Assembly: GCA_041661795.1 (NCBI GenBank) | Contig: JBAZTS010000002.1 | Location: 36,263-100,262, forward strand | Source of the DNA: Minisyncoccota bacterium | GTDB lineage: Bacteria > Patescibacteriota > Minisyncoccia > UBA6257 > JAGOQP01 | Direction: 5' to 3' | Length of the DNA: 64,000 nucleotides | Shown here: one piece after another, positions 22,031-62,693 of the stretch | Position numbering within the stretch: position 1 is the stretch's first letter | Layout of the letters: every line of letters starts with the position of its first letter | Notes under the pieces: model-generated | What the model saw: the letters and a program-made list of their open reading frames with translations, nothing else | Told to the model about the DNA's origin: nothing | Databases searched by the model: none | Translations under genes and position numbers: made by a program

Positions 22031-22073
22031 TTTTAGCTTTGACTTTTTCGATGTTGAGTTGTATTATCTTAAA

Positions 22074-22424
22074 AGATAAGTGAGTGATTGCCCTGACATT
22101 TGTTGGGGAGGAAAGTCCGGACTCCCATCTCCGACGTAACGTCGGAGTAAACGTATTCGCTAACAGCGAACTATCGCAAGATAAGAGGTGCGAACAGAGA
22201 CGAGTCCTAATGGAAACATTAGGGGTGAAACGGTCCCGACGCCTATTTCGGGTTAGGGACTCCGACATCCGCAAGGATCGTCGGAGCTAAATCCTTGCGG
22301 GGTGCAAGACCGTATCCGCCCAGGGCGGGTGAGTCGCTTGAACCTGAGAGTAATTGAAGGTCCAGACAAATAATCACTATCCCGACGTAACGTCGGGACA
22401 CAGAATCCGGCTTATAGCTTATCT
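22074..22424 (+). ncRNA. rnpB: RNase P RNA (bacterial type A)
   Basis: GGAGGAAAGTCCGGACTCC near the 5' end and ACAGAATCCGGCTTA near the 3' end. P1 pairs agataag with cttatct. GC-rich island followed by a terminator. Confidence 0.9.
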
Positions 22425-22506
22425 AAACATATCAAGAATCTCTCCTTAACGGGGGGATTTTTGATTGATTTATTAAGGGTTTTTTGATACTTTTAACAAG
22501 TTGCTT

Positions 22507-39278: not shown

Positions 39279-39309
<31 letters not shown>

Positions 39310-39325: not shown

Positions 39326-39923
39326 AAAAAAAGCCCGCCGGTGTCTTCCGAGGAAGTCCTGGCGGGGTGGAACAGGTGGTGCGACCTTAGCTCACTCGGT
39401 GCTGTCGAGTTCGCTCGCCCGATATACTCTCCGGGTGATACGAGAGCTCGAATCTGCCGAGACGTGACGCGTGGTCACTTTTTGCTAAGGTTTTTTGGGG
39501 TGCTGCTCCTCTTCCTGTTCGGTACTTTCTAAGAACGGTTCCCACACCGTTCTCGCCGGCGAGCTTAGCTCGCGCAGGGTAGAGGCGCCTCCTAAAGGAG
39601 GCAAAACATGAGTACAAATTCGGAATTGGATTTTTGTGAGTTTCCGGACTCACTATCTCGTTTGGTGCACCTCCCGAGAAGTCCTTTTCCTTCCACTTAT
39701 TATTGGGCCAGTTTGAGATCAGCGGTGGACACTCAAACTGTTTGCGTGCTTTCACCGAGCTTGCCGGATTTACTCGGATCTTTGGTGAGATGGCGCAACC
39801 CCACAGTTTTGACCTCCCTCAGCTGCGCGCGCAACTGAGTTGTCAGCTCACCTAGTGACAGAGGCCCCCTTTTTGACCGTTTTTTCTTCTTGGTCCGGAA
39901 GGGTTTCCGTGCTACATTTTTAT
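39326..39923 (-). ncRNA. GC-rich ~600-nt transcription unit of unknown identity (large structured RNA candidate)
   Basis: It runs from a near-consensus promoter (39930-39957) to a strong terminator (cccgccagg...ccggcggg plus U7). It is dense in local hairpins (gcgagc-tta-gctcgc, gcctcc-taaa-ggaggc, cagtttgag...ctcaaactg, gtgagt...actcac). Only composition-type ORFs are present. Confidence 0.4.
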
Positions 39924-52668: not shown

Positions 52669-54618
52669 TTATGAAGATGCTTTTTTAATTGCCTCCATTT
52701 CTTTTTTTATTTGAGTAGCTTTTTCAAACTGTAAATTTCTCTGTGCCATTTCCAGTTTTTGCCTTAATTCTTTCAAATAATCCCTCTTAAATTCACTGCT
52801 GATATTTTTGAACTCTTCGCTTTTCTCTTCTTTATTATCTAATAATGTATTTTTTATTTCTTTTATTATGGCCTGTGGCTTTTTATTGTGTTTGCGATTA
52901 TATTCCTGCTGAATTTTTCTTCTTCTGTCCATTTCGGATATTGCTCCTTTCATTGATTTAGTAGTTTTGTCGGCATACATAATCACATGGCTGTTTAAGT
53001 TTCTGGCAGATCTTCCGGCAATTTGAATGAAAGAAGTTTTATCTCTTAAAAATCCTTCTTTGTCGGCGTCTAAAATAGCTATTAATGAAACTTCAGGTAA
53101 ATCCAATCCCTCTCTTAATAAGTTTATCCCAACCAGAACATCAAACTTTCCGGTTCTCAAATCAAAAAGAATTTTTGGTCTTTCCAATGTATCAATTTCG
53201 GAATGTAAAAACTCAGCTTTTATTTTTTTATCCTTAAAATGTTGAACTAGGGCTTCTGACAAGCGCTTGGTAAGAACAGTTACTAAAACTCTTTCTTTCC
53301 TTTTTATTCTTTCTTCTATTTCTTTTATTAAGTCAGGGATTTGATTTTCCGTGGGGCGAATCTCAGTTTCCGGGTCCAAAAGATAAGTTGGTCTGACAAT
53401 CTGTTGGGCAACCAAAGATGATTTTTCCAATTCATATTCAGCTGGGGTAGCCGAAGCAAACAAACATTTATTTATTTTTGAATGAAACTCGTTAAATTTA
53501 AGAGGTCGATTATCTAAGGCCGATGGTATGCGAAATCCGTGTTCTATAAGAGTTTCTTTTCTGGCTTTGTCGCCGTGATACATCCCTCTTACCTGAGGAA
53601 GAGTCATGTGGGACTCGTCTATAATCATCAAAAAATCTTTAGGAAAATAATCAATCAAAGTGAATGGGGGACTGTCTGGTTTTCTTCCCTCAAAATAACG
53701 GGAATAATTTTCAATTCCTTTACACCAGCCAACTTCAGATATCAAAGCCATATCATAATTAGTCCTTCTCTTGAGACGCTCGGCTTCTATCATTTTTCCT
53801 CTTTCCTGAAGTTTTTTAACTTGTTCTTCCAAATCCAAACGTATATTGGATATGGCTACTTGTCTTACACTCTCTTCCGATGACCAGAATTTTGCCGGAA
53901 ATAAATTAATTTCTTTTATATCTTTACTTTTTCCAAACGGCGCTTCCATTTCCACTATTTTCTCAATTGATTCGTGGTTTATCTTAAATCTGTATAAAAT
54001 ATCTCCTCCCGGGGGCCAAACATCTATAAACTCGGCCCTCTGTCTAAAATTTCCTCTCCAAAAACCAAATTCGTTTCTCTCAAACTGTAAAGTTAGTAAT
54101 TTTTTTAGAAGTTCTCTTTTAGTTGTTTTTTGACCCACTTTTATTTTTAAAGAAAGATTTTTGTATGCCTCTGGAGAACCCAAATTATAAATACAGGAAA
54201 CAGAAGCCACGATTATGGTGTTTGGATTTTTTAAAACTGATTGGACGGCCGCGTGTCTTAGTTTGTCTATCTCTTCATTAATTTGAACTTCCTTTTCTAT
54301 ATAAGTATCGGATGTGGGTAAGTAGGCCTCTGGTTGGTAGTAGTCGTAGTAGGAAACAAAATAATGGACATTGTCTTTAGGAAATATCATTTTAAATTCT
54401 TCATAAAGCTGGGCGGCTAAAGTTTTGTTATGGGAAATAACTAAGGTGGGCTTGTTAAGTGCCTGAATGGTGTGGGCCATAGTAAACGTTTTACCGCTTC
54501 CGGTAACTCCCAAAAGTGTCTGGAATTTATTGTTTTTACGGAACCCAGAAACTATCTGTTTTATAGCTTTGGGTTGATCGCCAGCTGGCTTTAGTTTTTT
54601 TGATATATTAAATGGCAT
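52669..54618 (-). CDS. uvrB: Excinuclease ABC subunit B
   Basis: PAGDQPKAI, GVTGSGKTFT, DESH, LREGLDLPEV and the C-terminal UVR domain. Confidence 0.97.
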   Translation of the reverse strand: MPFNISKKLKPAGDQPKAIKQIVSGFRKNNKFQTLLGVTGSGKTFTMAHTIQALNKPTLVISHNKTLAAQLYEEFKMIFPKDNVHYFVSYYDYYQPEAYLPTSDTYIEKEVQINEEIDKLRHAAVQSVLKNPNTIIVASVSCIYNLGSPEAYKNLSLKIKVGQKTTKRELLKKLLTLQFERNEFGFWRGNFRQRAEFIDVWPPGGDILYRFKINHESIEKIVEMEAPFGKSKDIKEINLFPAKFWSSEESVRQVAISNIRLDLEEQVKKLQERGKMIEAERLKRRTNYDMALISEVGWCKGIENYSRYFEGRKPDSPPFTLIDYFPKDFLMIIDESHMTLPQVRGMYHGDKARKETLIEHGFRIPSALDNRPLKFNEFHSKINKCLFASATPAEYELEKSSLVAQQIVRPTYLLDPETEIRPTENQIPDLIKEIEERIKRKERVLVTVLTKRLSEALVQHFKDKKIKAEFLHSEIDTLERPKILFDLRTGKFDVLVGINLLREGLDLPEVSLIAILDADKEGFLRDKTSFIQIAGRSARNLNSHVIMYADKTTKSMKGAISEMDRRRKIQQEYNRKHNKKPQAIIKEIKNTLLDNKEEKSEEFKNISSEFKRDYLKELRQKLEMAQRNLQFEKATQIKKEMEAIKKASS

Positions 54619-54626
54619 AATTTTCT

Positions 54627-54654
54627 GCCACCTTTTTGGTCAGAAAAAGGTGGC
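54627..54654 (-). promoter_or_regulatory. Perfect 11-bp hairpin that sequesters the uvrB Shine-Dalgarno
   Basis: Minus-strand RNA reads GCCACCUUUUU-cugacc-AAAAAGGUGGC followed by agaaaauu and AUG. The AAGGUGG SD is fully paired. Confidence 0.5.
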
Positions 54655-54842
54655 GCCAAAACTGACAACCCTGTATATCCTCTCAAACAAATGAAACAAA
54701 TATCTCGCTTTGTCTTGAACTCGTATCTGCTATACTCACACACTCAAGACACTAAAAGCTCATATTTGCTTTATTTGTTAGTGTTCGGACATACGGGTTG
54801 ATATTTAGCTAATAATAGCCCTAAATCTAGTGTTTGTTAATA

Positions 54843-54871
54843 TTGACTTATTAGTAATAATATGATATACT
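54843..54871 (+). promoter_or_regulatory. Sigma-70-type promoter TTGACT-17-TATACT for GC-rich island A
   Basis: ttgacttattagtaataatatgatatact. The AT-rich promoter abuts the GC-rich transcribed region. Confidence 0.55.
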
Positions 54872-54962
54872 CAAAACAAGTTTCGAAACCGCTTCACTGC
54901 CGTGAACAACACTACAGAAAGAGCGGTCGGAGCACTGCTCTTTCACAGAAAGGGGAACTTCG

Positions 54963-55361
54963 ATGAGTGGGATCGCTTGGTTTTTCGAGGTGTTCGCTCT
55001 GCTGTTTTTCGTGGGGACTCTGGGCGTTGCTTTCATCGGACGCCGCATCCTCAAGGCGGAGCAGGAGTCGTCGGTTCTGATGTCTTTCCTCCAGATCTGC
55101 AGTGGAGCGCTCTTCATCTTCTACGTTTTCGGACTGGGTCAACTCATGGCTCTGTCTGGACTGGAAGGTGCAAGGGCGCCCCGGTGGCTGATTCCGGGCA
55201 CCTACATCACTCTCACCATCTTCAGCGCGTTGACTCGGCTGGCTCTTCCAAGGTGGGGCAGTGACAACAAAGCGATGCAACTCTGGAGTGTCGTCAGCGT
55301 CCTGACGTTCCTACTCGGCACGTTCTGCCTCGGGGCGTACTCGTCCAACTACTTCGAGTAG
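54963..55361 (+). CDS. GC-rich 132-aa four-TM membrane protein (compositionally foreign island A)
   Basis: AAAGGGGAA SD. Four hydrophobic helices (WFFEVFALLFFVGTLGVAFI, LQICSGALFIFYVFGLGQLMAL, GTYITLTIFSALTRLAL, LWSVVSVLTFLLGTFCLGAY). Own terminator. Confidence 0.65.
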   Translation: MSGIAWFFEVFALLFFVGTLGVAFIGRRILKAEQESSVLMSFLQICSGALFIFYVFGLGQLMALSGLEGARAPRWLIPGTYITLTIFSALTRLALPRWGSDNKAMQLWSVVSVLTFLLGTFCLGAYSSNYFE

Positions 55362-55386
55362 GTCTCCTTCTTCAGCTCTTCAACTG

Positions 55387-55420
55387 GCGGCGTCTCTCAC
55401 GAGGCGCCGCACTGCTTTTT
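55387..55420 (+). terminator. Intrinsic terminator of island A
   Basis: gcggcgtctc-tcac-gaggcgccgc followed by a T-run. Confidence 0.7.
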
Positions 55421-55467
55421 ATATGGTTATAAAATTTATATAAATTTCCCCGTCAATATAAATCCGC

Positions 55468-56607
55468 TTAATCGGTATATGTCCGTGACCGACGTAGTCG
55501 GTGGTATCGTATAGCAAATCTGTGGGCTTCGTTTCTTAACGAAAGTAATGTATTTTTAACATCTTCGGGGATTTGGCTCAAGCTGATAGGGGATTTTGAA
55601 TAGGGACTGTAAATCAATCCTTTTGTTTGTGATCTTTTATATTTCTTGCCAACATCGTTAATTAACTTACCATTACAATTAGAACGATCGTTGTAATTGT
55701 AATGGTGTGGATTATTACCCACAGATTGCAATTTGCCCACGTTTAGTTTTGCTAGAGCTATCATCGGAATCTTAATTGTTTTGAGTTGTGAGATTTGTGA
55801 TTTTCCTCCGTCAATGATAATTAAATCCGGATATTTCCATTCTTTGTGGTTAAGGCGTCTTTCTATAATTTCTTTTATTGAAGCCGGGTCATTGGCTCCT
55901 TTTATCGTTTTTATTTTAAATTTTCTGTAAAGATTTTTATTAGGTTTATTTCCGATAAACGTTACCATTGAGCCAACTGACAAACTACCTTGGGTATTGG
56001 AAATGTCGTAGCACTCAATATGTGTTTTTTCTCCATTATATAAACGAAGAAAAGTTTTTAATCCATTAACCACCTGGATGTATTTTTTTACTTCGATATT
56101 ATGAGCGGAACATAACCCTAAGTGATAATACAAGCACGGCTTTTCCGGTTTATTTTTACATGTGCGATAGGGGAATATTCTTCTGATTATCAATAAGAGA
56201 TGCTTAATCTCTTTTGCGTCTACAAACGGGCCAACAAAATCGGCTTTAAATTTTTTTGTTTGGTGTGTTAAAAGCACTCTGGGGTACTTTTCGTCGGTAA
56301 AAGCTATATACAAAAAATCCTTGTCATCTTTAAGTTCAATGTTATATTTTGGCTGATACTGTCTAACTAATTTTCTTTCTAAAATCAAGGCGTCTTTTTC
56401 AGATGGGGTTTCTATAAAATCTAAGTCAGCTACTTGTTTGTAAAAATTAATAGAAGCATTCTCTTGTCTAGAAAAATGCGATTCTATTCTCTTTTTTATA
56501 TTAATAGCTTTTCCGATATACAAAATCTTCTCATTCTTATCTTTGAAAATATATACTCCCGGTTTCTTAGGAAGTGCTTTTATCTTATTCTTCAGGATTG
56601 TTTTCAC
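55468..56607 (-). CDS. uvrC: UvrC-like excinuclease subunit, short form (GIY-YIG plus RNase-H-like endonuclease region; no UVR or HhH2 domains seen)
   Basis: PGVYIFKDKNEKILYIGKAINIKKR (GIY-YIG), IECYDISNTQG, PDLIIIDGGKSQ, IALAK and RNEAHRFAI. 379 aa versus about 600 aa canonically. Contains the palindrome at 55669-55706 in frame. Confidence 0.8.
   Translation of the reverse strand: MKTILKNKIKALPKKPGVYIFKDKNEKILYIGKAINIKKRIESHFSRQENASINFYKQVADLDFIETPSEKDALILERKLVRQYQPKYNIELKDDKDFLYIAFTDEKYPRVLLTHQTKKFKADFVGPFVDAKEIKHLLLIIRRIFPYRTCKNKPEKPCLYYHLGLCSAHNIEVKKYIQVVNGLKTFLRLYNGEKTHIECYDISNTQGSLSVGSMVTFIGNKPNKNLYRKFKIKTIKGANDPASIKEIIERRLNHKEWKYPDLIIIDGGKSQISQLKTIKIPMIALAKLNVGKLQSVGNNPHHYNYNDRSNCNGKLINDVGKKYKRSQTKGLIYSPYSKSPISLSQIPEDVKNTLLSLRNEAHRFAIRYHRLRRSRTYTD
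55669..55706. repeat. Palindromic element copy a (inside uvrC, in frame)
   Basis: accattacaattagaacgatcgttgtaattgtaatggt. On the minus strand it encodes part of NNPHHYNYNDRSNCNGKL. Confidence 0.85.
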
Positions 56608-56644
56608 TGTTTTTTTATTTTTATCCTTATCTTAATCTTAATCT

Positions 56645-56682
56645 ACCATTACATTTAGAACGATCGTTCTAAATGTAATGGT
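56645..56682. repeat. Palindromic element copy b
   Basis: accattacatttagaacgatcgttctaaatgtaatggt is a perfect 38-nt palindrome. It ends 2 nt from the stop of the 56685-57245 gene. Confidence 0.9.
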
Positions 56683-56684
56683 GG

Positions 56685-57245
56685 CTAGATTTTCTTTATA
56701 GTCCCCATTTTTCCTATTTCCAATATCTCCACGTATTCGTTTATTCTCATTTTTTCTAAATCTTCCACAAACTTTTTAGGAATTTTTATTTTTCCTATCC
56801 AGACACTTTTTTGCAACATTTCAAATCCAATATTCTTTACAGCTGATCTTAACCAAGCCCTCTTCCTTTTAAATTTTTCCGGAACATCAAAAGCTATCAA
56901 AATAACATTGTTTCCGGCTTCTTTCTTATAATCTAAAGCTGGAGATTGATTATTGGATACCCGGTTAATAAGTTTTTTGGCTTTTTTAGTAATCTTGATA
57001 ATCAACCCCTCTTTTTGTTCTATGAGTCCGTCTTTCTTAAGACGATAAATCATTACCCTATATCTGTTTCTTATTTTTTCTTTCTCTGTTTTGATAGTCT
57101 CATTTTTAGTGCCGATTCTATTTAAATTGTCTCTTAATATAGACGTTGAGCCCCAAGAGAATAAAAACGCTTCAAAAGCATTAGAGTATGTTTGTCTATC
57201 TACATTATTTAGAAAACTTATTGTTTCTCTATTTCTTGCCCTCAT
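56685..57245 (-). CDS. PaaX-like / Cas2-fold-like putative regulator (wHTH plus ferredoxin-like C-terminal domain)
   Basis: wHTH-like RVMIYRLKKDGLIEQ. The C-terminus VILIAFDVPEKFKRKRAWLRSAVKNIGFEMLQKSVWIG resembles the PaaX C-domain or Cas2 beta-alpha-beta core. Bracketed by palindrome copies b and c. Confidence 0.55.
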   Translation of the reverse strand: MRARNRETISFLNNVDRQTYSNAFEAFLFSWGSTSILRDNLNRIGTKNETIKTEKEKIRNRYRVMIYRLKKDGLIEQKEGLIIKITKKAKKLINRVSNNQSPALDYKKEAGNNVILIAFDVPEKFKRKRAWLRSAVKNIGFEMLQKSVWIGKIKIPKKFVEDLEKMRINEYVEILEIGKMGTIKKI

Positions 57246-57269
57246 AACAATATTATATCATCATTTATT

Positions 57270-57306
57270 ACCATTACAATTAGAACGATCGTTCTAATTG
57301 TAATGG
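57270..57306. repeat. Palindromic element copy c
   Basis: accattacaattagaacgatcgttctaattgtaatgg lies 24 nt upstream of the 56685-57245 gene start. Confidence 0.9.
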
Positions 57307-57417
57307 AGGGAGTATATATGATTAAGAATATTAAATAATTATCATAGAGTTATTATGATTATAGATTGATTTTATCGTTTTAATTAAAGAGTGCCTTATA
57401 AATTAGCACGGACCGCT

Positions 57418-57570
57418 TTATGGGCGGTCCGGGATGGGTGGAGCGGGTGCGGGCTTGACCACTTTGGCCACGAGGCCGATTAATATGGTCAGCATTGAAA
57501 CGGGTACTACGGTGGCGATGATGACGGACGATTCCACCACCACCAGAGACCACTTGACTAGGTAGTGCAT
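57418..57570 (-). CDS. GC-rich island B gene 4: 50-aa hydrophobic protein (not in the ORF track)
   Basis: AAAGGAGGU lies 4 nt upstream of the ATG. Product is MHYLVKWSLVVVESSVIIATVVPVSMLTILIGLVAKVVKPAPAPPIPDRP. The start overlaps the gene 3 stop. The stop codon sits in the loop of the ggaccgc...gcggtcc hairpin. Confidence 0.55.
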   Translation of the reverse strand: MHYLVKWSLVVVESSVIIATVVPVSMLTILIGLVAKVVKPAPAPPIPDRP

Positions 57571-57689
57571 TCAACCTCCTTTCTTCTGAGAATCTTGGTG
57601 ATCCACAGATAGAGGTTGTATCCTGTTTGAATAACGTGGGCCATCTTTTGGCCCAGTATTGTCGTCCGATGAAACGTTGTTGTAGACAT
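57558..57689 (-). CDS. GC-rich island B gene 3: 43-aa protein
   Basis: AAAGGAGA lies 4 nt upstream of the ATG. Product is MSTTTFHRTTILGQKMAHVIQTGYNLYLWITKILRRKEVECTT. The longer 100-aa track ORF in this frame lacks an SD. Confidence 0.45.
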   Translation of the reverse strand: MSTTTFHRTTILGQKMAHVIQTGYNLYLWITKILRRKEVECTT

Positions 57690-57703
57690 CACGTCTCCTT
57701 TGG

Positions 57704-57949
57704 TTAGGCGATGGCGCCGGGGTATTCTTCGGAGATCTTCTCGATCTCTTTTTCCTCTTTCTTCACTTGGTCTGTGAGCACAAGGAAGAAAAAGATGATG
57801 GCCATGATTCCCACAAGAGTGGCAAAGGCCCATGAAAAGCTCTTGGGGAGTTGGAACCATCGTGATAAGTGATATCCTCCAAAAGTGAGAATTACCACGG
57901 CCACGGTCGCTCCAACTTTACGGAGCAAGTTGAGTAGTCCCGGGAACAT
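57704..57949 (-). CDS. GC-rich island B gene 2: 81-aa two-TM protein with acidic/basic tail
   Basis: AAGGAGGAG lies 4 nt upstream of the ATG. TM segments are VGATVAVVILTFGGY and WAFATLVGIMAIIFFFLVL, followed by the tail KKEEKEIEKISEEY. Confidence 0.65.
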   Translation of the reverse strand: MFPGLLNLLRKVGATVAVVILTFGGYHLSRWFQLPKSFSWAFATLVGIMAIIFFFLVLTDQVKKEEKEIEKISEEYPGAIA

Positions 57950-58193
57950 TACTCTCCTCCTTTTTGGTGTACATCTTTCGAAGTTTCTCCTGTAGAGCGT
58001 TGAGCCCCGTGAAGACCAGGGCTCCGGTCAGAAACCCGATACAAGCCAACGATCCTCGGATCTCCAATCCTGGAGGCAGTGGAACTCGGTCTGCCCATAG
58101 GACCGTGAAGAAACAGGAAGCAGCAGTTGAAAGGCCAACGAAAGTGAACCAAACCACTCTTGCGATCAACTCCAGAACTTTTCCGATTTTCAT
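57918..58193 (-). CDS. GC-rich island B gene 1: 91-aa two-TM protein with charged tail
   Basis: GAGGAGGA lies 6 nt upstream of the ATG. TM segments are VVWFTFVGLSTAASCFFTVLW and LACIGFLTGALVFTGLNAL, followed by the tail QEKLRKMYTKKEES. The layout is holin-like. Confidence 0.65.
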   Translation of the reverse strand: MKIGKVLELIARVVWFTFVGLSTAASCFFTVLWADRVPLPPGLEIRGSLACIGFLTGALVFTGLNALQEKLRKMYTKKEESNVPGTTQLAP

Positions 58194-58280
58194 GCTCTGA
58201 TCCTCCTCTGTTTTTCACATTATAATAATCATTGAATTTTGTCCATGTTTGATTTAGAATAACCCTTTGGTTGGCATTTT

Positions 58281-61193
58281 ATGAAAAAAGAGAATCAATC
58301 AATAGAAATAATCGGGGCGCGTGTCCACAACTTAAAAAATGTGGATGTTTCTATACCTAAAAATAAATTGGTAGTTGTTTGCGGAGTTTCTGGTTCCGGA
58401 AAATCATCTTTAGCTTTTGATACTTTATACGAAGAGGGACAGAGAAGATATTTAGAAAGTTTGTCCTCTTATGTCAGACAGTTTTTAGGAGGATTTAAAA
58501 AACCAGATGTTGAAAAAATAATCGGCTTGTCTCCGACTATCGCCATCAACCAAAAAAGCGTTTCTTCCAATCCGCGTTCAACTGTGGGCACAATAACTGA
58601 AATTTACGATCATCTCCGTCTTCTCTTTGCTCGAGTTGGAATTCCTCATTGTCCAAATGACAACATTGTCATAACCGCTCAGACACCACAAGAAATCGCC
58701 AATAGAATTATTGACTTGGCTCATAACAACGAAATTGTTTTGCTGGCTCCAATAATCTCGGGGAAAAAGGGTCAGCACCAGGCGATTTTTGACGAGATTG
58801 AGAGGGGCGGATATTCACAGGTCAGGGTTGATGGGTATTTTTATCCCATTGCCGAAGCCAAAAATATTTCTCTGGATAAAAATAAAAAACACGATATCGA
58901 AGTTACCGTAGGTAAGTTTTTTACTGGAGTAAAAATAGATATCCAAAGAAATATATCCAAAATGGAAAGAGAGGCATTGAAAAACAAAAATAAAAAGATA
59001 GATAAGTTGATAAAAGAAGAAAAGTTAGAACTTTTAGAAAACATCAGAAAAGGACTGGCCATGGGGCAGGGAAATATTGTTGCTCATACCAAGGGGAAGG
59101 ATTTTTCCTTTTCCGAGAATTATTCCTGTTCTAAATGCGGATTTTCTTTACCCAAAATTGAACCCAGAACTTTTTCATTCAACAGTCCTTTTGGAGCTTG
59201 TAAAAATTGTCAGGGATTGGGAACTAAACTTGAAATAGATTTGGATTTGATAATCAACCCGGAAATCTCTTTGGAAGCGGGAGCTATAAAGCCCTGGTTT
59301 TCTTTAAGCCGTATGGGAAGAAGAGCTCTTGGCGCCAATTGGCAGAGATTTGTTACTGAGACCATTATTAGGGATTCTGGGCTGTCCCCAAGAACTCCTT
59401 TTGGAAAACTTCCCAAAGAAGTCCAGGATAAAATTTTATATGGTGATAAAGAAAATTATACTCATCTTAAAGACGGCGATTGGGAAGGAAAAACTTTATT
59501 TGAGGGAATTATTCCTCGCTTGGAGCGACTTTATTACGAAACTGAATCTGATTTTATCAGACAGGAACTTTCTAAATACATGCTTGAAAAAACCTGTCCC
59601 GTTTGTAATGGGTCGCGTTTAAGAGAAGAAGCATTGGCGGTAAGAGTGGGAGGAAAGAACATTTCTGAATTGACTTCAATGGCGGTTTTGGATTTTGTTA
59701 GTTTTTGCCAAAAACATATTTATGAAAAAATGTCGGAAAATCAAAAAACGGTTGCTGTTTCAATAATCAAAGAAATTTCCACTAAATCAAATTTTTTAAT
59801 TAACGTTGGTTTGGAATATATGAACTTGGGAAGGTCAGCGACTACTTTGTCAGTAGGAGAAAATCAAAGAATCCGCCTGGCTACCCAGTTGGGTTCTGGA
59901 TTGTCTGGAGTGATTTATGTTTTAGACGAACCGACTATTGGGCTTCATCCTCGCGACACTGACCGTCTCATAAAAACATTAAAAGAACTTAGAGATTTAA
60001 ATAATACCGTGATTGTGGTGGAACATGATGAGAGGGTTATAGAAAGCGCCGATTGGGTTATTGAAATTGGACCATTAGCCGGAGAAGAAGGTGGCAAGGT
60101 TGTTTTTGAAGGAACGCCATCAGATTTGAAAAAATCAAAAACGTTAACTGGATTATATTTTGCCGGCAAGAAAAAAGCGCAATCGGGACTTTCTAAAAAT
60201 AATTCTGAAAATAAAGAATTTATAAAACTGTATGGCGCTTCACAGTTTAATTTAAAAAACATAAATCTTTCCATTCCTTTAAAAAAATTTGTCTGTGTGG
60301 CAGGAGTTTCGGGCTCGGGTAAAAGCACGTTAATGTTAGATGTTTTTGCCAAGGCCCTTCAGAAAGAAGTTCTTAGGATGAGCGTGGCTGTAGGTGAATA
60401 TAAAAAACTTGAGGGGGAAAGAAATATAGACAAAGTGGTTATTATTGACCAAAGTCCTATCGGCAGAACCCCTCGTTCCAATCCGGCTACTTATACGGGA
60501 ATTTTTACTCCCATTAGACAATTTTTCACTCGCTTGGAAGAGTCGCAGATAAGGGGATATGGGCCATCATATTTTAGTTTCAACGTTAAGCCGGGAAGAT
60601 GTGAGGCCTGCAGAGGGGAAGGATTTAAAAAGGTGGAGATGTATTTTTTGCCGGATATGTACGTAGAGTGTGAAGTTTGTAAAGGCACCAGATTTTCTCC
60701 CGAGGTTTTGGATGTTAAATATAAAAACAAAAACATTGCTGATGTTCTTTCTATGAGCGTTAAGGAAGCGCTGGCGTTTTTTCACCAGTTTCCTTTTATT
60801 GGCGATAAGTTAAAAATTCTTGATGAAATCGGTCTTGGATATATGAAACTGGGACAGCCGGCGACAACTTTGTCGGGAGGAGAAGCTCAAAGGATAAAAC
60901 TTTCCGATGAACTTGCCAAAAGAGCTACAGGAAGGACTATTTATATTTTAGACGAACCGACTGTGGGACTTCACTTTGAAGACACAAAAAAACTTTTATA
61001 TATTTTGCGCTCGTTGGTTCTAAAAGGTAATACGGTTTTAGTTATAGAACACAATCCTGATGTTTTAAAAGAATCGGACTGGATTATTGAACTTGGTCCC
61101 GAAGGTGGAGACAAGGGAGGAAAAATAATTTTTGAGGGAACACTGGAAGAGATAAAAAAGAAAAAAACAATGACGGGGAAGTATTTAATATGA
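58281..61193 (+). CDS. uvrA: Excinuclease ABC subunit A
   Basis: Two ABC modules ([15 protein letters not shown] and [10 protein letters not shown]; LSGGEAQR signatures) plus zinc modules (CSKCGF...[14 protein letters not shown]...CEVCKG). Confidence 0.97.
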
Positions 61194-61411
61194 AGATAAT
61201 AATCATCGTAAAACCAAATAAAAAAGAAAATAAGGTTGTGAAAATAGGAGAGAACATTTTTGAAATTTATACGAATCAACCGGCTAAAGAAAATAAAGCC
61301 AATTTGGATATTATTCAACAAATGTCCAAGTATTTTAAAGTATCAAAATCAAAGGTTTCTATATCTTCCGGATTAAAGTCAAAGAAGAAAATTTTGGAAA
61401 TAAATATATAA
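61190..61411 (+). CDS. DUF167 (YggU-like) protein
   Basis: IIVKPNKKENKV...NQPAKENKANLDII...SKVSISSGLKSKKKILEI matches the DUF167 pattern. Confidence 0.8.
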   Translation: MKIIIIVKPNKKENKVVKIGENIFEIYTNQPAKENKANLDIIQQMSKYFKVSKSKVSISSGLKSKKKILEINI

Positions 61412-61941
61412 AAAAAGGGGGCTCCCGGTGTTGCTGGGAGCCCAAAGTGCGGTAAGGAGGTCAATGTACGATGCGGTGCCTGCCGTGCGTCGCTTCGCTC
61501 GTTCGGGTCTTGGTGGTTCAGATCAGGGCCAGTCGTGCCCGAAAACTTAACTTTCTGGCCCATTGCTTCTCGGCACGCATGGTTTCTCCTTGCATGGATT
61601 TTTGGTCCACGCAGCTCTGCCCTCAGCGCTTGACGGTGGCCTCGTCGTTGGTGCGGTGGTTGTTCTGACGCTGTTGCATGGGATTTCTCCTCGCGTGAAC
61701 GTCGTCGGTTGTTGGTGCTAGCTATGGCTCAAGTCAAGCTTTCTTTTCGGTGAGCTTGACGAGCAGTGCTAGCGCCTGTTCTGGGTTTCGTTTTTTATCG
61801 GTATAACCTTCACAAGGTTATACCAGGGTTTCCTTCCTGATTGGCGGTCAAGAAGGTTGTTTAATCATCCAGCATTGTCCTAACTAACGGAACGGCGGTT
61901 CGACGTCCACGTGCATCGCTTTCCTCCTTATGTAGTTTACT
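61410..61941 (-). ncRNA. GC-rich ~530-nt transcription unit (large structured RNA and/or SD-led micro-ORF cassette)
   Basis: Promoter at 61948-61976. Terminator gggctccc-agcaacac-cgggagcccc plus U7. The 5' uaaggagg...cgaugc can pair with the 3' gcaucg...ccuccuua. It contains an 11-bp GUGA-capped hairpin (ggtataacctt gtga aggttatacc). No ORF over 25 aa has a plausible start. Confidence 0.4.
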
Positions 61942-61947
61942 TATTTC

Positions 61948-61976
61948 AGGATAAAACAAAAACGGCTATTAGTCAA
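61948..61976 (-). promoter_or_regulatory. Sigma-70-type promoter TTGACT-17-TATCCT for the GC-rich unit
   Basis: The minus strand reads ttgactaatagccgtttttgttttatcct, located just after the SDR stop codon. Confidence 0.45.
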
Positions 61977-61991
61977 ATATTTTTGTGAAAC

Positions 61992-62693
61992 TTACTTTTG
62001 ATGCTGAAACACATCTATTATCAAATTTTGGTCGGGGATAATTTCTTTTTTTAATGCTTTGACAATGACCTGAGCAACTTGATTTGGAGTATGTTTTGGT
62101 TCATGGTCGGGAAAACATGTTTTAAACATTCCAGTATCGGTTGAGCCGGGAGTAATTGTAAAAACGTCTATATTGTATTTGGAAAGTTCGTCTTTTAACG
62201 ACTGAGAAAGATTTATAATCGCCGCTTTAGTTAGAGAATAAATAGAGAGTCCTTCAATCCCGTAAAATCCGGCTCCAGAAGAAATATTGACGATTAATCC
62301 GGATTTCTTTTCTTTCATAATTTCAAGAACCCTTTTTATAACATTTAAAGTTCCTTTGATGTTAACGTCTATAATAAAATTCCAGTCAGGATAATCGGTT
62401 TCTTCAAAATTTTTATTCTGGGCAACAGCCGCATTGTTTACTAAAATATCTATACTTCCGAATTTATCAATCGTTTCTTCAATAACTTTTTCAACATCTT
62501 CTTTTGTTCTTATATCGCCTTGAGTAACTAAAAAATTGGGATTTTTTAAAATCACTTCCGTATCCAAATTATCGGGGATATTAATGGAAACCGTAGAAAC
62601 TTTACATCCTTGGTCAAGCAAGAGTTTGGCTGTTTCAAGACCTATTCCCGACGTTGCTCCAGTTATAAATACAACTTTATTTTTTATGTCCAT
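61992..62693 (-). CDS. SDR family oxidoreductase
   Basis: TGATSGIG, NNAA and the S...YSLTKAA catalytic triad region. Confidence 0.9.
   Translation of the reverse strand: MDIKNKVVFITGATSGIGLETAKLLLDQGCKVSTVSINIPDNLDTEVILKNPNFLVTQGDIRTKEDVEKVIEETIDKFGSIDILVNNAAVAQNKNFEETDYPDWNFIIDVNIKGTLNVIKRVLEIMKEKKSGLIVNISSGAGFYGIEGLSIYSLTKAAIINLSQSLKDELSKYNIDVFTITPGSTDTGMFKTCFPDHEPKHTPNQVAQVIVKALKKEIIPDQNLIIDVFQHQK

Follow-up and report, generated by a model that had tools for sequence, protein, structure and literature searches.

A GC-rich four-cistron island of probable foreign origin between uvrC and uvrA in a Paceibacterota genome

Introduction

How does a block of DNA in which half of the bases are G or C, carrying four small, tightly packed genes each led by a Shine–Dalgarno (SD) site, come to lie among the core repair genes of an AT-rich genome whose own genes show no enrichment of such sites? 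The question is raised by a 64,000-nt stretch of contig JBAZTS010000002.1 (assembly GCA_041661795.1, Minisyncoccota bacterium), referred to below as the window, in which a minus-strand island of 813 nt separates a PaaX-like gene from uvrA. A first-pass annotation had described this island as an operon of small membrane proteins and as a compositionally foreign cassette. The analysis presented here leads to the view that the island is probably recently acquired foreign DNA, organised as a compact four-cistron operon within what was ancestrally a short divergent uvrC–uvrA region.

Very little is known about gene gain and host interaction in Paceibacterota and the candidate phyla radiation (CPR), and genomic islands and horizontal gene transfer have been documented in Patescibacteria (PMC12455944). 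The locus presents what appears to be clean, unaltered foreign DNA between core repair genes, with signals mismatched to an apparently SD-independent mode of initiation. It can serve as a test case for whether such lineages express SD-led foreign genes, and with whom they exchange DNA. Should the four proteins be made, they would constitute a new family to which nothing known is related; should they not, the locus gives a measure of the intact but silent foreign DNA that a streamlined genome will tolerate.

Composition and integrity of the island

Between positions 57400 and 58212 the G+C content is 0.503, compared with a mean of 0.359 (sd 0.034) for all segments of 813 nt. This is the highest value in the window for that length; only 0.02% of such segments reach it, all of them located here, and the flanking sequences have G+C of 0.263 and 0.323. 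The sharpest change points in composition fall at ~57409 and ~58208, which bears out the abrupt switch noticed in the first-pass annotation; its hand count of 34 G+C among the 60 nt of 58021-58080 is exact. Codon usage follows the same division: the G+C content at third codon positions (GC3) is 0.52-0.71 in the island open reading frames (ORFs) and 0.30-0.33 in the neighbouring host genes.

The island is internal to its contig and has host genes on either side, its neighbours being uvrA, a DUF167 gene, the PaaX-like gene, uvrC, and uvrB. The segment 57.25-58.30 kb, including both junctions, is 100% identical in the Logan assemblies SRR18595301 and SRR6484324, which derive from different runs, and a 156-kb ENA contig (ERZ27249449) carries identical DNA across both junctions. 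The locus is also found in a metagenome-assembled genome (MAG) at NCBI, on contig JBAYLG010000001.1 of GCA_041664185.1, classified as Candidatus Paceibacterota (CPR). The junctions were thus compared at the DNA level in two Logan assemblies, one ENA assembly, and one NCBI MAG, which is the window's own record; a second NCBI MAG is known from identical protein records only. Because the same junctions are 100% identical across assemblies from different runs, a chimeric assembly is excluded.

Four cistrons and their signals

Four minus-strand ORFs starting with ATG (Table 1) tile 776 of the 826 nt of the block (94%). ORF1 and ORF2 overlap by 32 nt and ORF3 and ORF4 by 13 nt, with a gap of 14 nt between ORF2 and ORF3, so that the ORF sizes and the start/stop overlaps of the first-pass annotation are as it gave them. 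Each ORF is preceded by a strong SD site, with pairing energies to the anti-SD sequence of -12.0, -11.6, -8.7, and -12.3 kcal/mol for ORF1 to ORF4, respectively; the spacing, put at 4-6 nt in the first-pass annotation, is in fact 7, 4, 4, and 3 nt. When the 23 ATGs of the island are ranked by SD pairing, the starts of ORF4, ORF1, and ORF2 take the first three places and that of ORF3 the fifth. Such an arrangement is not reached by chance: 2000 dinucleotide-preserving shuffles never yielded more than two ATG ORFs of 40 aa or longer with an SD site, as against the four observed, and SD-led ORFs covered at most 525 nt, as against 776 nt.

Table 1. Features of the island and its immediate surroundings, with positions in the window.
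Feature	Position	Strand	Remarks
GC-rich island, presumed transcribed unit	57400..58212	-	G+C 50.3%; change points at ~57409 and ~58208
Putative sigma-70-type promoter	58219..58245	-	TGGACA (58245-58240), N15, TATAAT (58224-58219); read by eye
ORF1, 91 aa	57918..58193	-	SD GAGGAGGA at 58208-58201, 7 nt before ATG
ORF2, 81 aa	57704..57949	-	SD AAGGAGGAG at 57962-57954, 4 nt before ATG
ORF3, 43 aa	57558..57689	-	SD AAAGGAGA at 57701-57694, 4 nt before ATG
ORF4, 50 aa	57418..57570	-	SD AAAGGAGGT at 57582-57574, 3 nt before ATG
GC hairpin, 3' end of the island	57409..57431	-	CGGACCGC-loop-GCGGUCCG, 8 bp, -15.4 kcal/mol, z -4.6
Perfect 36-bp palindrome	57271..57306	.	Between the island and the PaaX-like gene; overlaps the promoter-like site of that gene
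PaaX/Cas2-like gene	56685..57245	-	Host-like, AT-rich; downstream of the island on the same strand; missing at the uvrC-uvrA junction of relatives

In all four ORFs GC3 exceeds the G+C content at second codon positions (0.52/0.45 in ORF1, 0.60/0.34 in ORF2, 0.55/0.41 in ORF3, and 0.71/0.39 in ORF4). A generic 3-periodic Markov coding model, trained on 220 long genes of ~52% G+C from unrelated loci, places the proposed frame first among the six for ORF1, ORF2, and ORF4, clearly so for ORF2. The ORFs found in alternative frames (89, 100, and 78 aa) were rejected as genes: they have no correctly spaced SD site, no transmembrane (TM) segments, and worse coding scores.

Gene calling in the island is uneven. 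In the ORF track of the window ORF3 is concealed in a 100-aa ORF that starts upstream of it, and ORF4 falls below the default length cut-off, as the first-pass annotation had said of the two smallest frames. One of the NCBI MAGs has only ORF1 and the other only ORF2, the JGI record has a 66-aa version of ORF2 named DedA-like, Logan calls ORF1, ORF2, and ORF4, and the ENA record has no call here at all; none of the records contains ORF3.

At its 3' end the operon closes with a GC hairpin, the loop of which contains the stop codon of ORF4. The hairpin noted earlier is present; it is not a canonical terminator, being followed by no U-tract and not called by a terminator scan. At the other end, the putative promoter lies in an AT-rich stretch of 87 nt that the island shares with the divergent uvrA, and GC-rich sequence begins ~7 nt downstream of it. 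It was not listed by the promoter scan, which accepts spacers of 16-18 nt only. This promoter may be the ancestral promoter of uvrC.

Translation signals of the host

The host genes in the window present a different picture. An SD site of -6 kcal/mol or stronger precedes the first start of only four of the 54 long host ORFs (7%), as against 9.5% of random ATGs, in agreement with the earlier remark that most neighbouring genes have no visible SD. The sole related Paceibacterota locus fetched with a 16S rRNA 3' end, that of GCA_021837745.1 (L005), belongs to a relative and not to the host itself; in an Rfam alignment its 16S rRNA ends in ...GCGUGAAACAAUUAAUUA, and the anti-SD core CCUCC is missing. 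The usual bacterial 16S rRNA 3' end is GGAUCACCUCCUUU. No CCTCC occurs in the 250 nt that follow the 16S rRNA 3' end of L005 (1-677). Because the host shows no SD enrichment and the 16S rRNA of its relative has no anti-SD sequence, the SD sites of the island are a feature of another kind of organism. A search of the available literature found no paper linking the loss of the anti-SD sequence with Patescibacteria.

In 13 of 53 long ORFs a -10-like hexamer, TAnnAT, ends 4-12 nt upstream of the start codon, most often at 6, 8, or 11 nt (for example, at the starts 15280, 30016, 36627, 57245, and 62744). This pattern suggests that leaderless mRNAs, or mRNAs with very short leaders, may be widespread in the host.

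The insertion site in relatives

In the nearest genome available, L008 (UvrA 72% and UvrC 54% identical), uvrB, uvrC, uvrA, and the DUF167 gene follow one another directly, with 38 nt between the divergent uvrC and uvrA. The two genes are likewise divergent and adjacent in L012, with ~50 nt between them, and in L011, where they also diverge, they are separated by an AT-rich truB-like gene. Neither the GC-rich block nor the PaaX-like gene is present between uvrC and uvrA in any of these three. A scan of metagenome contigs with UvrC gave distant relatives only, at most 46% identical, and no closer relative of the host was present in the collections scanned. The PaaX-like gene was tried and rejected as a synteny anchor, its homologues being at most 51% identical and situated in unrelated contexts.

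At the ends of the island no terminal repeats or target duplications were found, and no integrase gene or tRNA gene at its borders.

Searches for homologues

An exhaustive HMMER search of ORF1 against 1.84 billion representative proteins returned the protein itself and four spurious matches to multi-repeat proteins, one of them FN3-like, which were rejected as the sum of a weak repeated motif and not homology. The search with ORF2 gave only its own cluster. The protein clusters hold the sequence of this organism alone, the ORF2 cluster additionally containing a shorter call of the same gene, and the exact sequence of ORF3 is absent from the protein collection. The products had no match in a PDB sequence search. 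No match was obtained with blastn and tblastn against phage and plasmid collections and in IMG/VR scans, nor when every island ORF was compared by tblastn with the 167 loci fetched. A search with the concatenated ORF1-4 protein gave no matches either, and is uninformative, as self-hits were also absent. Nothing relevant was found in the literature on the accessions.

Profile searches gave the same result. Scans of the ORFs with Pfam, PHROGs, NCBIfam, and PADLOC produced sub-threshold noise only, the best of it a match of ORF2 to DUF3021 (E 0.004, under the family cut-off).

The products and their possible function

By hydropathy, ORF1 has TM-like segments at residues 13-32 and 48-67 and a charged C-terminal tail, and ORF2 has such segments at 5-23 and 36-63, followed by an acidic/basic tail that is net acidic. 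Single-sequence AlphaFold models of both are helical hairpins, with helices 4-36 and 43-81 in ORF1 (pLDDT 71) and 3-32 and 36-75 in ORF2 (pLDDT 76). Hydropathy and models agree on the holin-like topology, two TM helices and a charged tail, that had been read from the letters. ORF4 is hydrophobic over residues 3-40 and ends in a proline-rich tail, KPAPAPPIPDRP, again as described earlier, and ORF3 would be a small basic peptide with no TM segment. TM segments are confined to the proposed frames.

The products most plausibly come together as a small complex in the membrane, like those that phages and other mobile elements carry as accessory cargo. A membrane-acting function, whether as a holin/antiholin-like, a toxin/immunity, or an exclusion module, can be put forward only tentatively, and the choice of any such action is a guess from topology. 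For the lysis or holin-like candidate of the first-pass annotation the topology speaks, and the rest of what such a module would bring was not found: no holin family profile in Pfam, PHROGs, or NCBIfam matched above threshold, no endolysin, spanin, or phage genes lie within 10 kb on either side of the island, and there is no prophage context. When the ORF1 model was compared by fold with BFVD, only generic helical hairpins came back, none at E <=0.001. ORF4, small and hydrophobic, fits the description of a type I toxin by its predicted sequence; on the plus strand at 57495-57522, antisense to ORF4, there is a weak promoter-like match (9/12).

Other GC-rich islands and palindromes in the window

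The window holds four GC-rich islands, three of them in gaps between or beside uvrB-uvrC-uvrA-DUF167; this was overlooked in the first-pass annotation. A further ~17 kb of the same genome has no GC-rich island. The idea that the four are copies of one element was discarded, as they have no sequence similarity to one another.

The second island, at 54880-55420 on the plus strand between uvrB and uvrC, has a G+C content of 0.53-0.58 and a GC-rich leader of ~80 nt, preceded by a promoter-like TTGACT-N17-TATACT at 54843-54871. It contains an SD-led ORF for a 132-aa protein (54963-55361, GC3 0.74) with 3-4 TM segments and ends in a strong hairpin with a T-run terminator at 55387-55420. The 132-aa protein has no family match and is the only member of its protein cluster, no search for homologues having been made with it.

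The third island (61420-61950, minus strand) lies downstream of an SDR gene and converges with uvrA-DUF167. It has only SD-led micro-ORFs of 10, 18, and 20 aa and is non-coding by the generic model. Its minus strand folds with a z-score of -7.1, stronger than RNase P RNA, and the island ends in a hairpin with a T-run at 61443-61408. There is no Rfam match, and the island is a candidate novel structured RNA. As a yardstick for structured RNA, the window itself offers the RNase P RNA of bacterial class A at 22072-22430 (138.8 bits), with a G+C content of 0.50 in a genome of 36% G+C.

The fourth island, 39330-39900, is located directly upstream of dnaX and has folding z-scores of -4.6 (+) and -3.2 (-). 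It has no convincing ORF, since an SD-led ORF of 76 aa at 39608-39838 scores as non-coding, and no Rfam match even at E <=1. The signal recognition particle (SRP) RNA is often encoded upstream of dnaX; the fourth island is far longer and was not recognised as one. Four tandem copies of TATAAAG (39282-39309) precede the dnaX start codon by ~10 nt.

A perfect palindrome of ~40 bp, with the arms CCATTACAATTAGAACGA and TCGTTCTAATTGTAATGG, occurs three times, at 57271-57306, 56645-56680, and 55670-55705, in a span of 1.7 kb, and nowhere else in the window. The PaaX-like gene has a copy on either side, and one of these two has a matching AATT->ATTT change in both arms, by which the symmetry is kept. 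The third lies in frame inside uvrC, in an insertion of ~35 aa missing from the UvrC of relatives, and in this it resembles the Rickettsia palindromic elements, which insert into coding sequences. With its three islands, the palindromes, and the PaaX-like gene, the repair-gene cluster (52669-62000) looks like a local insertion hot spot.

Origin of the island

The GC3 values, the strong SD sites confined to the island, its absence at the syntenic site of relatives, and the exclusion of a chimera together uphold the description of a compositionally foreign cassette. A foreign origin is well supported by these features of the sequence; it is unproven, because no donor was found. As for the more specific proposal of a GC-richer, SD-using source and expression from a host-type promoter, the composition and the SD contrast agree with such a source, the promoter being a reading of the sequence and the transfer a deduction from it.

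If the island was acquired, the following scenario can be proposed. In relatives uvrC is driven from the short region that it shares with uvrA, and the insert appears to have come between the old uvrC promoter and uvrC. Transcription would then start at the AT-rich, host-type promoter, ~7 nt upstream of the start of the GC-rich sequence. ORF1-4, the PaaX-like gene, and uvrC now all point in one direction, and because the 3' hairpin has no U-tract the transcript may read through it into the PaaX-like gene and uvrC. In bacteria that use SD sites, overlapping cistrons of this sort go with translational coupling; in such a cell the SD sites of the island, together with its overlaps of 32 and 13 nt, would couple the translation of four small proteins, of which three are membrane-embedded. 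The SD signals and the GC-rich codon usage would be an inheritance from the donor and not features of the host, and the island itself would most likely be a membrane module of accessory type derived from a mobile element.

Several observations weigh against this scenario. No donor or homologue of the island is present in the searched collections, and the signatures of mobility, that is, repeats, target duplications, an integrase, and a tRNA, are missing. The relatives are distant (UvrA at most 72% and UvrC at most 54% identical), which leaves the timing of the insertion loose. The island is identical in all assemblies and there are no orthologues to compare for purifying selection. The coding score of ORF3, the weakest of the four, is ambiguous and no better than that of one reverse frame. 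The GC-rich block and the presumed transcript have the same extent, and the block matches RNase P RNA in G+C content (0.50), as would also be expected of a structured RNA gene. Finally, if the host has no anti-SD sequence, like its relative, the SD sites are non-working and the proteins are perhaps not made, so that expression and translation in the host are then doubtful.

The last point leads to a serious rival, namely that the island is young, silent DNA: an inert fragment, integrated for instance after DNA uptake, whose source was a GC-richer organism with SD-led genes or a phage of that organism. It would be intact only because it is young, and untranslated or poorly translated because initiation in the host does not depend on SD sites. 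This is a real possibility, though not the favoured one. It would account for the host starts without SD enrichment and the related 16S rRNA without anti-SD sequence, for the want of homologues and of evidence of selection, and for a composition without drift toward the host value. Random capture would usually bring truncated genes; the island, however, is a neat, complete unit from the first SD to the closing hairpin, with no gene fragments, placed right behind a host-type promoter. That its sequence is identical in samples sequenced years apart also speaks, weakly, against inert DNA.

It is unlikely that the four ORFs are native, if unusual, host genes, fast-evolving and lineage-specific, encoding small membrane proteins that might act at a symbiont-host interface and owing their composition to selection. 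Products without relatives and a host-type promoter would suit such genes, as would the second GC-rich island nearby (54963-55361), which likewise encodes a membrane protein without known relatives. A GC3 of 0.52-0.74 in a genome with ~0.31 is, however, hard to obtain by selection at the protein level, the SD sites are otherwise unused by the host, and the island is absent at the syntenic locus of relatives.

More improbable still is a structured non-coding RNA gene, GC-rich through folding, in which the ORFs would be incidental. The coincidence of block and presumed transcript and the G+C content shared with RNase P RNA agree with it, the minus strand has a folding z-score of -3.35, and two neighbouring islands, 39330-39900 and 61420-61950, have a non-coding appearance and good folding (z -4.6 and -7.1). 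Host coding controls, however, reach -3.9, so that -3.35 lies within their range, and no Rfam match was found at the gathering threshold and no meaningful one at E <=10. Moreover, 94% of the block is taken up by the four ATG ORFs with their SD sites, an extent that none of the 2000 shuffles approached, the coding signal is frame-specific, and TM segments occur in the proposed frames only.

An assembly chimera or a binning contaminant, for which the abrupt composition switch is the sole point in favour, has practically no chance of being the explanation, given the position of the island inside the contig with host genes on both sides, the identical junctions in SRR18595301, SRR6484324, the 156-kb ENA contig, and an NCBI MAG, and the identical proteins in a second MAG.

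The cassette and its sister islands keep expression signals of donor type, namely strong SD sites, GC-rich codons, and hairpin ends, within an episymbiont that apparently does not itself initiate at SD sites. Beyond the acquisition of foreign DNA as such, they might directly record an exchange of DNA between this bacterium and the partner on which it lives, or even serve as the vehicle of that exchange; this is a far outside chance. Just as speculative is the idea that the membrane proteins come from the partner, or are meant for SD-using ribosomes, and act at cell-cell contact.

Comparison with known systems

S21-type pinholins have ~70-100 aa and two TM domains. ORF1 and ORF2 are similar to class II holins/pinholins of this type, and to holin-antiholin pairs, in their size, two TM helices, short loop, and charged C-terminal tail, and the island genes, like those of holin systems, are small, tightly packed, overlapping, and SD-led. 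They differ in having no holin profile match and no neighbouring endolysin, spanin, or prophage; the island ORFs also have no dual-start motif, and the tail of ORF2 is net acidic. ORF4 and, by size, ORF1 and ORF2 are, like the toxins of type I toxin-antitoxin systems (Hok, TisB, and Fst types), short hydrophobic peptides behind a strong SD, but the island is a four-cistron operon and not a single toxin ORF, and there is no family match.

As a unit, the island can be compared with integron cassettes, with which it shares a length below 1 kb, a lack of known relatives and of a promoter of its own, foreign composition, and an external promoter. In contrast to them, it has no attC-type imperfect inverted repeat, its only such structure being the 8-bp hairpin, and neither an integrase nor a cassette array. 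Like morons and genomic islets, it is compositionally discontinuous, self-contained, devoid of known relatives, situated between housekeeping genes, and absent from the syntenic site of relatives. It differs from them in that there is no prophage, integrase, tRNA, repeat boundary, or identified donor, and in that its SD signals are apparently unused by the host. An islet of horizontally acquired ORFans is a known kind of element; what makes this one more interesting is its SD-dependent design, set against a host that apparently does not use SD sites.

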